A DNA stretch of 64,000 nucleotides, from NCBI RefSeq assembly GCF_044647545.1, contig NZ_CP172818.1; one strand, given 5' to 3'. Numbering within the stretch: the first letter of the stretch is position 1; each line of letters starts with the position of its first letter. The notes beneath the pieces are model-generated. The model worked only from the letters and a program-made list of their open reading frames with translations, was not told the DNA's origin and made no database searches. Below are positions 33,582-61,580 of this stretch, in pieces. This DNA comes from Escherichia coli. GTDB lineage: Bacteria; Pseudomonadota; Gammaproteobacteria; Enterobacterales; Enterobacteriaceae. Both the position numbers and the translations under genes were made by a program.

Positions 33582-33765
33582 TCTCTGTAGTGATTAAATA
33601 AAAAATACTTCAGAGTGTACCTGCAAAGGTTCACTGCGAAGTTTTGCTCTTTAAAAATCTGGATCAAGCTGAAAATTGAAACACTGAATAGCCGAAAGTT
33701 ATTCGTGAGTCTCTCAAATTTTCGCAACACGATGATGAATCGAAAGAAACATCTTCGGGTTGTGA

Positions 33766-39083: not shown

Positions 39084-39935
<852 letters not shown>

Positions 39936-39938
39936 GGT

Positions 39939-40610
39939 ATGTCAGGTCTGCCACAGGGCAGACCAACGTTTGGCCCCCTTTAAAAAAAAAAAGACACCAA
40001 TACAACACAACAAAAAAAAAGCGCTGCGCAAAACGTGAGCGCGGTGGTGGCGTATGACTTATCTGCCCAAATGCTGGATGTCGTGGCACAAGCTGCCGAA
40101 GCCGGGCACCTGAAAAATATCGCCACCCGCCAGGGATATGCCGAAAGTCTGCCATTTGCCGATAACGCATTTGATATTGTTATCAGCCGTTATTCTGCCC
40201 ATCACTGGCATGATGTTGGTGCAGCACTGCGAGAAGTGAATAGGATATTGAAACCTGGCGGTAGGCTGATTGTGATGGACGTAATGTCTCCGGGTCACCC
40301 AGTGCGCGACGTCTGGTTACAGACGGTAGAAGCATTACGCGATACCTCTCACGTACGAAACTACGCCAGCGGTGAGTGGTTGACGTTAATCAATGAAGCC
40401 AATCTGATAGTTGATAATTTAATTACAGATAAGTTACCGCTGGAATTTTCTTCATGGGTCGCGAGAATGCGTACGCCAGAAGCGTTAGTAGACGCTATTC
40501 GCATTTACCAACAGAGCGCATCGACAGAGGTGAGAACGTATTTTGCCTTGCAGAATGACGGCTCTTTCACCAGTGATATCATCATGGTAGAAGCACATAA
40601 AGCGGCATAA
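39939..40610 (+). pseudogene. yafE: truncated/interrupted SAM-dependent methyltransferase
   Basis: ATG at 39939 is in frame with the methyltransferase body (GTG 40035 to stop 40610) but separated by a 48-nt A-rich tract with in-frame TAA (39981-39983); body lacks Gly-rich motif I. Confidence 0.7.
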
Positions 40611-40657
40611 ATAAAAAAGGCACCGGGGGAATCGGTGCCTTTTGATTATCTGATTTG

Positions 40658-42016
40658 TCAGGAATCTGGCATGTTGTTGTTTTTCACAAACAACGTCAGC
40701 TTATCGCCTGGTTGCAGATTCGCAGTGTCGCTGTTCCAGCGCATCACATCTTTGATGTTCACGCCGTGGCGTTTAGCAATGCTTGAAAGCGAATCGCCTT
40801 TGCGCACACGATACGTAATGCTATCGCTGTTGTTTGCCAGTCGCTGTGCGCTACTGCCTGCGCCAATCGTCAAACTTTGGCCTGGCTTCAGCTTAGATCC
40901 GCGCAGTTTGTTCCACTGCTGCAAATCTTTGGTGCTTACGCCGAGACGTGAAGCGATACTTGAAAGCGTGTCGCCAGAGCGTACGGTGTAAACACGGCTG
41001 TTAAGCGGCGTATTGTCGGCAACCAGCGTCGACTGTACAGCAGCAATTTCGCCTGAAGCCAGAGATTCACGCAGTTGATCTGCATGCTTCTTTGGCACCA
41101 TCACGTACTGCGGACCACTTGCGCCCAGCGTGGAGCCTTTCACGCCTGCGTTGAATGTCTTCAGCTTGCTGACGGAAATCCCCGCCATATCTGCAACCTT
41201 CGCCATTTCAACCGGGCTGCTCAGGTGCACACGCGCCAGAGCACGGCTTTCATCGGTCGTTGGCAGACGTACGCCATAACGCTTGCTGTTTTTGAGAATA
41301 TCACTCAATGCCAGCATTTTAGGCACGTACTGCTTCGTTTCCTGCGGCAACGGTAACGACCAGAAGTCCGTGGATTTCCCACGCGCTTTGTTCGTTTTAA
41401 TTGCCTTCATGACCCGACCTTCGCCGCTGTTATAAGCCGCTACGGTCAGAAGCCAGTCGCCGTCAAACATCTTGTTCAGACGCTGCATCATGTTCAGCGC
41501 GGCAGTTGTTGAAGCAACAACATCGCGACGCGCGTCATAATTGCGGGTCTGTTTCAAACCATAATTGCGCCCCGTGCTCGGAATGATCTGCCAGATGCCC
41601 GCGGCATTGGCGCCAGACGTTGCGTGAGGATCAAAAGCGCTCTCCACTATGGGTAGTAGTACCAGTTCCATAGGCATGTTACGTTTTTTAACTTGCCCGG
41701 CTATCCAGTACATATACGGCTCTGCCCGTAAAGTTACATCGTGGAGATAGCTCTTATTGCGTAAATATTTCTGTTTCTGTTCGCGAATCCGGTCGTTTTC
41801 CGGAATTCCCATCTTTAGCTCGTCGCCAATGAAAGCCCACAAGTCACCATCTGGCGCGATAGACGTCCCATCGTCCATCCATCGTGCCTGACTTGTAAAC
41901 TTTGCTGCTTCCCCTTGACCAGCTGCAGAAAGGCTCTGTGCGTGCTGTTGAACGTTGCCGGTGCTCTGGCAACCCACGAGCAGGACAGAGGCGAGTAATA
42001 TCGCTTTTGCCTTCAT
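40658..42016 (-). CDS. mltD: membrane-bound lytic murein transglycosylase D
   Basis: 452-aa ORF; lipobox LVGC; C-terminal LysM repeats. Confidence 0.93.
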   Translation of the reverse strand: MKAKAILLASVLLVGCQSTGNVQQHAQSLSAAGQGEAAKFTSQARWMDDGTSIAPDGDLWAFIGDELKMGIPENDRIREQKQKYLRNKSYLHDVTLRAEPYMYWIAGQVKKRNMPMELVLLPIVESAFDPHATSGANAAGIWQIIPSTGRNYGLKQTRNYDARRDVVASTTAALNMMQRLNKMFDGDWLLTVAAYNSGEGRVMKAIKTNKARGKSTDFWSLPLPQETKQYVPKMLALSDILKNSKRYGVRLPTTDESRALARVHLSSPVEMAKVADMAGISVSKLKTFNAGVKGSTLGASGPQYVMVPKKHADQLRESLASGEIAAVQSTLVADNTPLNSRVYTVRSGDTLSSIASRLGVSTKDLQQWNKLRGSKLKPGQSLTIGAGSSAQRLANNSDSITYRVRKGDSLSSIAKRHGVNIKDVMRWNSDTANLQPGDKLTLFVKNNNMPDS

Positions 42017-46328: not shown

Positions 46329-46796
46329 TTAATCTTCCTTGCGAGAAATATATTCATTATTACATTTCATGCCATTTTTAATATAGGTTGCTCCTGGGAA
46401 AATCCCCGTGTTATTACCGCAGGGGTGATAATTATCATTAACATATCCTGTGACAAAAGGAGCTATTAAAGGTGCTATTACGATAGCTATTAGTAAAAAT
46501 ATAAGAGTTAGCTGTATTGTTATGTCTGTGGCGAAATTGATTACCTTTGTTTTTTTTATTAAGAATGATTTTATTATCGTTAGTAAAATTACATGAATAT
46601 TTAACAAGGAAAACGATATGAAACCGAAGCATAGAATCAACATTCTCCAATCATAAAATATTTCCGTGGAGCCTTTTATTATTGAATATAGAGGTTTAAT
46701 TCCGGTAAAAAACAAAGATGCATTGAATGCAGGGAAAAATAATATGGCTATAAAAAACATCGAAAGAAACTCTTTCAATTTAACATGTAAACGCAT
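46329..46796 (-). CDS. ykfM: putative inner membrane protein
   Basis: 155-aa hydrophobic, AT-rich ORF; start may lie a few codons upstream. Confidence 0.65.
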   Translation of the reverse strand: MRLHVKLKEFLSMFFIAILFFPAFNASLFFTGIKPLYSIIKGSTEIFYDWRMLILCFGFISFSLLNIHVILLTIIKSFLIKKTKVINFATDITIQLTLIFLLIAIVIAPLIAPFVTGYVNDNYHPCGNNTGIFPGATYIKNGMKCNNEYISRKED

Positions 46797-47098: not shown

Positions 47099-47162
47099 TG
47101 AAAAATCACCAAGAAAATTAACCAGATCTCGCTCTGAACTCGTAATAAATTCTATGGTTCTG

Positions 47163-47439
47163 CTGATTTAACCGCAGAAAAGTTCGCCACAGCAATCCGA
47201 AACCACTGGCACGTGGAGAATAAGCTGCACTGGCGTCTGGACGTGGTAATGAATGAAGACGACTGCAAAATCAGCGAAAGAGGAAACGCCGCAGAATTAT
47301 TTTCAGGATACGGCGCATCGCTATTAATATTTTGACGAATGATAAGGTATTTAAGGCAGGGTTAAGACGTAAGATGCGAAAAGCAGCTATGGACAGAAAC
47401 TATCTGGCGTCAGTCCTTGCGGGGAGCGGGCTTTCGTAG
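47163..47439 (+). mobile_element. yafF: H-repeat (ISAs1-family) transposase C-terminal fragment, frameshifted
   Basis: Translation ...[40 protein letters not shown]... then, after a frame change, ...[36 protein letters not shown]. Confidence 0.75.
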
Positions 47440-52180: not shown

Positions 52181-52291
52181 GGTCTTTTCTCCCCAGGGAG
52201 AGGGCCGGGTGAGGGTAACAGCCTGCACCTTTGTACTTTTTAATCAATCTTCGCCGGGGGCCATGCGCTCCCGCTGTTGTGGAGGTTACCC

Positions 52292-55425: not shown

Positions 55426-57182
55426 GCAGGGATCTCCCCCACAACACTCAACGCCCCCATAATCTTCAACTCCAGCTCGTCCGGCACTTCGTTATACGAC
55501 AGCACATGCAGCCCCGGCGCAAACAATCTCGCATAGCGCGCCAGCAAAGGGCGCAACTGCGGTGGCACCAGCAGCACAGGGTCTTTCCCCGCCGCTTTCA
55601 TCTGCTCCTTCACCTGCGGCATCGTACTCTGGAACTGGTTGAGCATATTCGGGTCTACCGGCACGCTGTCGAGCATCACTTTGCCGGCCTGTTGCGCCTG
55701 ATTCACCACGTTGGTCAGCAGATTTTCCAGCTCATTATTCAGCGTATACACCGTCAGCTCCTGCTTGCGAACGAACGGATGGGTAATGCTGCGCCGCAGC
55801 GCCAGGCGCACATCTGCCGCCAGCAGAATATGATCTTTGGTCACCGCACTACTGGCGACCAGCACGGTGGCGATGGTGACGATATCGCGCAGGGAAACGC
55901 CTTCAGTCAGCAGCGCCCGGTACACTTTCAGCAACTGGCTGTAATTCAGCGCCGCGCTCAAATCCTCCGCCAGTCGCGGTGCCATCGACGACAGGCGGTT
56001 ATGCAACTGCGTAATATCGTCATAGTTAAATAAATCAGGAATATAGCTGCGCACAATCTTATTCACATGCGTGGCAATTACGCTGGCGCTGTCGATCACC
56101 TGATACCCCATATTCAGCGCCTTCGCTTTCTGCGCAGGCTGAATCCAGGTGACCGGCATCCCATATGCCGGGTCATTCCCCAGTACGCCGTCAATCTCGC
56201 CGTAGGTTTCGCTGGAGGGCAGGGCCATCAGTTTATCCGCCGGAATATCCGCTTCATCAGCCTTAATGCCGTTGATGAAAATGGCGTACTGGCTGGGCTT
56301 GAGACGGAAGTTTTCCCGAATACGGATCTCCGGCAGCAGCACGCCGTTACCGTCGGATATCACCTGCCGCACGCCGCGAATCCGCTGGGTGAGCGGGTTC
56401 CCCTGCGCTTTGTCCACCAGCGCCACCAGCTTGTAGCCGAGGCTTAAGCTGATGGGCTCGATCAGCGGAATGGTTTCCCAACTGACCTGTTGCTCGCTGG
56501 TTTCGGTGATGGTTCGGGTCAGCGTTTCGAGGCTTTTCTCCTCCGCCTCCGCCGCCTGCGGGCGTTTGCTCATCCGCCAGCCGGTAAAGCCAAGCAGGGC
56601 GCTGAACAGCAAAAATGGCAGATGCGGCATCCCCGGCACCACCGCCAGCACAAACATGATCCCGGTGGCGGTGTAGAGCACCGACGGACTTGCCAGCAGC
56701 TGGTGGCGCACGTCATGGGCGATATCGCCGTTGTCGCTGACGCGGGTGACGATAATTGCCGCCGCGGTGGAGAGCAGCAGGGACGGGATCTGCGCCACCA
56801 GCCCGTCGCCGATAGTCATCAGCACATATTGCTGGAAGGCGGCGTCGGCGCTCAGGTTGTATTTGAAGATCCCGATACAGACGCCGCCGATCAGGTTGAT
56901 CGCCAGAATCATCATCCCGGCGATGGCATCGCCGCGCACAAACTTCGATGCCCCGTCCATTGCGCCGTAGAAATCGGCCTCGCTGGCAACATCTTTACGC
57001 CGGGTTTGTGCCTGCGCCTGGTTGATCAATCCGGCGTTAAGATCGGCGTCAATCGCCATCTGTTTACCGGGCATCGCGTCCAGGGTAAAGCGGGCAGAAA
57101 CCTCGGAAATACGCTCGGCCCCTTTGGTGACGACGATAAAGTTGATTGTCAACAGCGTCAGTAAATCCGAGCGTGAAAGCAT
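55377..57182 (-). pseudogene. lfhA: FlhA-like flagellar export protein remnant (Flag-2 cluster), 5'-truncated
   Basis: About 600-aa ORF with FlhA-family similarity (…FVRGDAIAG…, C-terminal cytoplasmic domain) lacking the N-terminal TM region and a credible start. Confidence 0.8.
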
Positions 57183-60424: not shown

Positions 60425-60691
60425 ATGGAATGGTACATGGGCAAATATATTCGTCCCTTATCCGATGCGGTATTTACCATCGCATCTGATGACCTGTGGA
60501 TCGAGAGTTTAGCGATCCAACAATTACACACCACGGCAAATTTACCCAACATGCAACGCGTAGTAGGGATGCCAGATTTACATCCCGGACGCGGCTATCC
60601 GATTGGCGCAGCGTTCTTCTCCGTAGGCCGTTTTTACCCGGCAAGACGTCGCGGTAACGGTGCTGGAAACAGAAACGGGTCGCTACTCTGA
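60425..60691 (+). pseudogene. ykfJ: RtcB-like RNA ligase N-terminal fragment
   Basis: 88-aa ORF with RtcB-type motif GMPDLHPGRGYPIGAAF, then terminates; overlaps prfH. Confidence 0.7.
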
Positions 60692-61160: not shown

Positions 61161-61580
61161 TTGAAGAATGAAACTCCCGCCGTTTTCTATATGAAAGCGC
61201 GCGCAAAACGAAAGAATCTCATTTTATCTCTCTTCCCTTTTTTTGATAAATCTTTCTTGTAGAACTTCTGTTGCTTCATCGCGCCGGTTTTTGGCTTAGT
61301 TTGGCCATTCGCCCGTTTTTGATCTTTTTGGCGTCGGGTGGTAACGCCAAACTCACTTTTTCCTCTTAGGCATAATATGGTTTGTCCGCCGGGGGGCTAG
61401 TTTTGGGCGGAAAAGAGAAAAACCCTTTCCAAATTGTTTTTCGACTGCGATCTGGGTCTTTCGGTAACACTTTCCTACATAGGTATTTTTTTTTTATTTT
61501 TAAAAAAAAAAAAAATCAAAAAAAGATAGCCATTGGCTTCAAACAGAAGTCCACGCCCGCAGGCGTGGACATTATCGTAA

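Follow-up and report, generated by a model that had tools for sequence, protein, structure and literature searches.

A 48-nt A-rich tract interrupts the 5' part of yafE in the window (the whole 64,000-nt stretch of DNA that was analysed). Judged from allele alignments, this tract appears to be a garbled remnant of the 5' end of yafE itself and not an insertion: it is an ordered subsequence of a 220-bp ancestral segment that K-12 lacks, so the 48 nt are not foreign. The tract is likely to be an artefact of sequence reconstruction, namely a consensus built for an FDAARGOS_497-like strain on a K-12 template, a template-guided origin to which the overall pattern points. This reading follows from the subsequence relation, the combination of a K-12 structure with FDAARGOS-type SNPs, the recurrence of the same defect elsewhere in the window and the uniqueness of the tract. 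The real strain probably carries a full-length yafE encoding 256 aa. Most likely, then, the tract is an artefact; at best it would be what is left of a dead gene, and it does not represent a novel genetic element.

Table 1. Features of the yafD-yafE locus and of the other anomalous sites in the window; one row gives a comparison locus from another strain.
Feature	Position	Strand	Remarks
yafD (endonuclease/exonuclease/phosphatase family), 266 aa, intact	39135..39935	+	ORF; annotated CDS counterpart in K-12 and FDAARGOS_497
14-codon ORF MSGLPQGRPTFGPL, ending in a stop	39939..39983	+	start codon is the K-12 yafE start
Hairpin 3' of the yafD stop	39945..39964	+	perfect 8-bp stem, 4-nt loop
A-rich tract, 48 nt	39975..40022	+	apparent base-dropped remnant of the ancestral yafE 5' segment
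GCTGCGC, right copy of the direct repeat bounding the K-12-type 220-bp deletion	40023..40029	+	
yafE 3' 191 codons, GTG start	40035..40610	+	191-aa ORF
ISAs1 transposase remnant, 259 nt	47162..47420	+	in place of the FDAARGOS_497 23.5-kb T6SS island
FDAARGOS-specific intergenic hairpin element, ~98 nt, K-12-absent	55427..55445	+	few scattered bases left
rtcB-prfH deletion junction, 1,019 bp	60635..60643	+	ACCCGGCA/ACCCGACA microhomology
Second garbled region, prfH-pepD	61174..61523	+	same signature as the yafE tract
Flanking repeats in Z1323PEC0010	190-205 and 413-424 of the extracted locus (NZ_CP148282.1)		perfect 12-nt GTTTGGCGCTGC

The yafD gene showed zero differences from FDAARGOS_497 in the alignment. 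Its stop codon TAA (39933-39935) is followed by an ATG (39939-39941) that adjoins the yafD-proximal hairpin, composed of GGTCTGCC (39945-39952), the loop ACAG and GGCAGACC (39957-39964), with the 8-bp stem seen in the minimum free energy (MFE) fold. The hairpin is kept in all three alleles compared (full-length, K-12 and window), and in K-12 it provides a surrogate N-terminus, MSGLPQGRPTFG. The window frame that opens at ATG 39939 reads MSGLPQGRPTFG, then PL, and is closed by an in-frame TAA (39981-39983) at the start of an A11 run (39982-39992); the tract contains a further homopolymer, A9, at 40012-40020. Exact homology restarts at GCTGCGC, beyond which a GTG (40035), in frame with ATG 39939 and 96 nt from it, opens an ORF corresponding to residues 67-256 of FDAARGOS_497 YafE, with 100% identity apart from the GTG start, which is read as Met and is Val66 in the full-length protein. 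Runs of A or T of at least 8 bases number eight across the 64 kb, and the three longest (A14, A11 and T10), as well as A9, all lie in the tract or in an anomalous region at 61.5 kb. The sequence-only reading had described the ATG and its MSGLPQGRPTFG frame, the hairpin, the 48 nt at 39975-40022 with their in-frame TAA and A11 and A9 runs, and the frame from GTG 40035 to 40610, and all of these were recovered here. Downstream of yafE, a weak, sub-threshold Rfam match to sroD on the minus strand (40614-40703; 27.7 bits, below the gathering score of 50, E = 0.0097) overlaps, in the yafE-mltD interval, a GC-rich hairpin and a T-run, and probably reflects a shared terminator.

Two natural alleles of yafE were found in E. 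coli: a full-length allele (771 nt, 256 aa) and a K-12-type allele. A 601-nt query over the tract junction matched 5,424 of the 5,426 complete E. coli genomes, never in one piece. The full-length allele, exemplified by FDAARGOS_497 (NZ_CP033850.1; protein WP_000211702.1), encodes a class I SAM-dependent methyltransferase with motif I (VLDMGCGAG, residues 48-56) at the beginning of its Methyltransf_11 domain (residues 49-145, E = 1.5e-26). The three-allele alignment showed that the K-12 allele is a 220-bp deletion between short direct repeats of the GCGCTGC type, bordered by ...TTTGGCGCTGCCC on the left and ...TTTGTCGCTGCGC on the right. The segment missing from K-12 comprises the intergenic end, RBS, ATG and first codons of full-length yafE, and through its loss the ATG beside the yafD-proximal hairpin is fused to ancestral codon 61. 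The exact K-12-type junction is present in 1,330 of the 5,426 complete genomes. Strain Z1323PEC0010 (NZ_CP148282.1), which has full-length yafE, carries identical 12-nt copies of the direct repeat, GTTTGGCGCTGC, on the two sides of the segment, so that the origin of the 220-bp deletion is plain to see; this allele is a plausible precursor state for the K-12-type deletion. Z1323PEC0010 was also the source of the sole 90.7% junction match, a candidate third natural allele that was rejected because it is the full-length allele with a longer direct repeat.

The yafE annotation of K-12 covers 624 nt or 207 codons (WP_000016007.1), and K-12 yafE DNA equals the window minus exactly the 48 nt of the tract. 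The expectation, in the sequence-only reading, that removing the 48 nt would restore the K-12 207-codon frame was therefore borne out, and the yafD-yafE alignment confirmed that reference K-12 has no such tract. The further suggestion that the gene is 5'-truncated and without its Gly-rich motif also held, with VLDMGCGAG present in full-length YafE and the window ORF beginning at the equivalent of residue 66. It is a solid conclusion that the annotated 207-aa YafE of K-12 is an N-terminally truncated fusion without the SAM-binding motif, and equally solid that it arose via deletion between short direct repeats, which are perfect over 12 nt in some full-length alleles. Inactivation by another route was seen in a Logan contig of SRR30949806 (489-1258), where a full-length yafE carries a frameshift in motif I (GGCTGCGGGCAAGGC vs GGCTGCGGAGCAGGGC in FDAARGOS_497) that splits the gene into ORFs of 65 aa and 191 aa; this is an independent natural inactivation of yafE. 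It was the one public contig found with an exact match to the 191-aa protein and was considered as a carrier of the tract, but was rejected because its 5' region is full-length and frameshifted.

Alignment with the 220-bp segment showed that every base of the 48-mer recurs, in the same order, within the first 74 nt of that segment, a perfect ordered subsequence. None of the subsequence controls equalled the tract (0 of 20,000 mono-shuffles, 0 of 20,000 run-preserving shuffles and 0 of 20,000 shuffled targets). With hyphens for missing bases, the embedding in the 74 nt is -C--CCCTTT--AA--AAA-AA-AAAAG-ACA-C-CAAT-ACAACACAA-C--A--A--A--A---A-AAAAGC. The 26 missing bases, distributed over 17 micro-gaps, are all non-A, while the 30 A's are all retained (P = 1.6e-8), and the tract contains no substitution relative to the ancestral 74 nt. 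The 146 nt that follow are absent entirely, and this gap stops exactly at the K-12 right border; the region thereby amounts to 18 deletions (17 micro-gaps and one 146-nt gap), with 172 of the 220 nt lost. The A11 and A9 runs are the A's of AATCAAACAATAAAA and ACCATGACCACGTAGAAAA after removal of the other bases, and ancestral AAGGACAGCGCAATG appears in the window as AGACACCAATA, with the RBS degraded and the ATG destroyed by loss of its G. At both larger garbled sites (the yafE tract and 61174-61523), G is lost early and preferentially. An insertion of 48 nt into a K-12-type yafE, as the sequence-only reading had implied, is not upheld by these data: full-length homologs show that the tract derives from ancestral sequence, an outcome that the same reading had named as evidence against itself.

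That reading had also proposed a database search for the 48-mer, which returned no carrier among 5,426 complete E. coli genomes; the tract core was likewise absent from 100,044 GTDB species representatives and from JGI metagenomes, where 19-mer matches fell only in unrelated DNA and are attributed to chance. No second copy was found elsewhere in the window, and a literature search on yafE and yafD returned only unrelated peptide-sequence matches.

The sequence around the tract is that of FDAARGOS_497. In a seven-genome panel, the window differed from FDAARGOS_497 by 0.02% over 23 kb, with one private SNP; about 40 kb around yafE are essentially identical, and about 10 differences were counted in the ~60 kb around the tract. 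Among the 1,334 SNPs that separate K-12 from FDAARGOS_497, the window carries the FDAARGOS allele at 1,327. At the 0.02% background, ~0.015 mutational events would be expected in 74 nt, whereas 18 were seen. The structure is K-12-like wherever FDAARGOS_497 has extra DNA, with K-12 deletion junctions at two sites and base-dropped sequence at the rest. All seven of the larger structural discrepancies from FDAARGOS_497 coincide with K-12/FDAARGOS indel sites: six lie in DNA absent from K-12 (yafE 5' end, T6SS island, 62-nt and 98-nt intergenic elements, rtcB-prfH and prfH-pepD), and the seventh, at 824, lies at the border of a K-12-specific REP. The exceptions away from such indel sites are a 1-nt gap in an rrn spacer and a T7/T8 difference in run length. 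Where K-12 has extra DNA (REP/BIME clusters and rayT), the window follows FDAARGOS_497 and lacks it.

The absence of rayT, a REP-associated tyrosine transposase, and of several K-12 REP/BIME clusters at 55426-55448, shared with FDAARGOS_497, is natural between-lineage variation in repeat content. Other origins for the window as a whole were considered and rejected. A divergent Escherichia or Shigella lineage had been suggested by a best match of 98.2% over 16 kb, a misleading ranking since island-sized indels distorted it, and the difference from FDAARGOS_497 is 0.02%. A recoded or engineered K-12 genome does not fit, as the window departs from K-12 through natural alleles of the FDAARGOS type, some of them non-synonymous. 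Recombination with a K-12-like donor would bring K-12 SNPs beside the junctions, and none has been imported.

The same signature recurs in the second garbled region, where ~810 nt of FDAARGOS_497 DNA are cut to ~350 nt by ~85 micro-gaps. The source DNA contains a metal-dependent hydrolase gene and a small hypothetical ORF, and is present in relatives and absent from K-12. Base retention across this region declines from 0.92 to ~0.2 from left to right, ending in T10 (61486-61495) and A14 (61502-61515), after which identity abruptly returns to perfect; the right-hand 55 FDAARGOS-specific nt at this site are perfect. The K-12-specific bases GAAAC, absent in FDAARGOS_497, occur at 61165-61175, where K-12/FDAARGOS homology ends. 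At the ISAs1 remnant, the left junction is identical to that of K-12 and the flanks are of the FDAARGOS type. The remnant has 94-95% identity to the K-12 one and at most 97.3% to any of ~16,700 ISAs1 copies, none of them an exact match, and it contains a 3-nt insertion and a 1-nt deletion vs two aligned copies (the K-12 remnant and ISAs1 of strain 120899). A remnant in place of the island was found in K-12-type genomes only, the best of which is 95.4% identical. The rtcB-prfH ACCCGGCA junction is identical to the K-12 ykfJ/prfH pseudogene junction, with FDAARGOS-type SNPs a few bases away on both sides.

The smaller sites are more varied. About 80 of the 98 nt of the FDAARGOS-specific hairpin element are lost, the kept bases standing mostly at its right edge, while the 62-nt FDAARGOS-specific repeat element at 52.2 kb (52194-52207) retains 58 of its 62 nt, with TTT and G lost. 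GGGG is lost at 824, the REP deletion border, vs FDAARGOS_497. The rrn spacer between tRNA-Ala and 23S (33692-33699) has a T-to-C change and a 1-nt deletion in a small hairpin, an allele without an exact match among the 37,890 rrn copies of 5,424 complete E. coli genomes (97.6% at best). The run at 46550-46557 is T8 in the window and T7 in FDAARGOS_497, the sole homopolymer-length difference in otherwise identical sequence.

The source organism belongs to the FDAARGOS_497 lineage of E. coli, and its sequence appears to have been built on a K-12-like template, through some form of reference guidance, polishing or pileup consensus. A procedure of this kind would adopt the SNPs and deletions of the sample and would poorly recover DNA absent from the template. 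At yafE, the template would have the natural 220-bp deletion, and the extra 220 bp of the sample would have been recovered as a thinning trail: bases would be lost progressively from the left anchor, A's surviving as the locally dominant base, and past 74 nt nothing would be recovered up to the right border of the template. The window shows the combination characteristic of a template-guided artefact, with sample SNPs on a template structure and damage only in segments that the template lacks. The three alleles align cleanly, the window has both K-12 deletion borders, and the same left-to-right decay into homopolymers is seen at the second garbled site. Moreover, the damage tracks K-12-absent segments, which a natural process in an FDAARGOS_497-like clone could not know, and this favors an artefact over a natural event. 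The ISAs1 remnant and the rrn spacer allele, neither with a natural match, fit a consensus over non-identical repeats.

Nevertheless, several observations stand against a template-guided artefact. No nameable algorithm predicts this exact output, and the early loss of G is unaccounted for. By reasoning, three simple procedures were rejected: (i) projecting the FDAARGOS row onto the columns of K-12 gives 0 extra nt at yafE, not 48; (ii) removal of ambiguous bases where alleles disagree does not give 48 nt with all A's; and (iii) a naive per-column majority pileup would yield a smoothed 220-nt insert without dropouts. The left-to-right direction is not universal, as shown by the element at 55427-55445 and by the right-hand 55 nt of the second garbled site, and the 62-nt element at 52.2 kb was nearly all recovered. 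Finally, deletions between short repeats (yafE and rtcB-prfH) could in principle recur naturally.

This last point bears on the reading that the sequence is real and that a sub-lineage of FDAARGOS_497 lost yafE through a 146-bp deletion together with a burst of small deletions across the neighbouring 74 nt, leaving a functionless natural scar, which we consider improbable. The retained bases are all ancestral and in order, as deletional decay predicts, and a deletion bias is known in bacterial pseudogenes. The yafE and rtcB-prfH deletions both sit between short direct repeats, possible promoters of recurrent loss, and the K-12-type yafE deletion is already common in nature, as its count among complete genomes shows. 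Yet 18 independent deletions without a substitution in 220 bp are not credible beside ~10 differences per 60 kb, and neither the number nor the spectrum of mutations matches flanks that diverge by 0.02%. No mutational mechanism is known that would spare A so strictly. Natural decay would moreover require that the other sites independently decayed or were deleted in much the same way, yet the damaged sites mirror DNA that K-12 lacks; at one of them, an ISAs1-mediated T6SS deletion would have produced the K-12 junction within FDAARGOS flanks. No related complete genome shows any of these changes.

It is rather unlikely that the window was computed or altered, instead of being derived from reads, whether by a generative sequence model, by projection from a graph or an alignment or by deliberate perturbation, in such a way that it tracks one strain and breaks down or jumps at strain-variable segments. 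In favor of such an origin, the window shows lossy copying that runs down into homopolymers and locks again onto conserved DNA, a hybrid of K-12 structure with the SNPs of another strain, and repeat and rrn-spacer alleles without any natural match. However, the window agrees with one strain at 1,327 of 1,334 discriminating SNPs over 64 kb, which is hard to square with free generation. Projection in particular predicts no extra nucleotides at yafE where 48 are present, and it could not supply the ISAs1 remnant, which is absent from FDAARGOS_497 at that locus. That the window faithfully represents a real, otherwise clonal genome on which an undescribed E. coli process has acted by deletion only, shredding the 5' end of yafE and the hydrolase region through dozens of deletions of 1-4 nt with A spared and G lost first, is very unlikely; if it existed, it might act through aberrant gap repair or template-switching synthesis.

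We give almost no credence to the tract as a genuine insertion or functional element (small mobile or foreign DNA, or an A-rich regulatory or slippage tract for yafE): relative to K-12 it looks like a clean in-frame addition of 48 nt flanked by GC/GC, and runs of A9-A11 can support transcriptional slippage, but the statistics firmly establish that it derives from the ancestral 5' sequence, it has no copies in the window, E. coli genomes, GTDB representatives or metagenomes, it lacks the marks of an insertion (unrelated sequence, other copies, terminal repeats and target-site duplication), no Rfam match, promoter-like or terminator-like site was found within it, the TAA is made of a T and the first two A's of A11, so slippage inside the run cannot remove it, and the downstream ORF is without motif I, so nothing functional is left downstream for it to regulate.

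Taken literally, yafE in the window would be classed, from its sequence, as a pseudogene without a start codon, RBS or SAM-binding motif I and with an early TAA in the K-12 frame. The Gly-rich motif I (E/DxGxGxG) of a functional methyltransferase lies outside an ORF that starts at the equivalent of residue 66, and by this evidence the 191-aa ORF could not be a working methyltransferase. Neither is there an intact start with an RBS, since the frame of the K-12 surrogate ATG ends after 14 codons. The locus corresponds to neither natural allele: a K-12-type allele has the direct junction ACGTTTGGCGCTGCGCAAAAC and an open 207-codon frame, where the window has 48 nt between the borders, and a full-length allele has a contiguous 220-bp 5' segment, of which the window has 48 of the 220 nt.

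The biological importance of the tract is low, yafE being an uncharacterised methyltransferase gene that is truncated in about one quarter of complete E. coli genomes. The practical consequence concerns the window, which carries several reconstruction scars (39975-40022, 47162-47420, 55427-55445, 60635-60643 and 61174-61523, as well as smaller ones). Any other finding from this window calls for suspicion if it depends on homopolymers, unusual low-complexity DNA, gene truncations or deletions like those of K-12.

Compared with K-12-type yafE, the window has the same borders (left ACGTTTGG-C, right GCTGCGCAAAAC) and the same surrogate ATG, and has likewise lost residues 1-60 including motif I. 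In K-12, however, the borders are joined directly and the 207-codon frame is open, whereas the window has 48 extra nt and a TAA, and its 3' part carries FDAARGOS-type and not K-12-type SNPs. With full-length YafE the window shares the 3' 191 codons, bar the start codon, and all tract bases come from the 5' region of the full-length allele, but the RBS, ATG, N-terminal 65 residues and motif I are missing. Deletional decay of pseudogenes likewise leaves a shortened non-coding remnant of the 5' end of a gene; in natural decay, in contrast, substitutions accumulate alongside occasional deletions over a long time, while the window has 18 deletions and no substitution against a clone-level background. 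Reference-guided and template-polished assemblies are subject to reference bias and collapsed insertions. The window resembles them, as far as general knowledge of such pipelines allows the comparison, in its sample SNPs on a template structure, its lost or partly recovered insertions, its template bases at homology breakpoints and the chimeric consensus carried by its repeats and rrn copies, and differs from them in keeping every A and in losing G early, neither of which this likeness explains.
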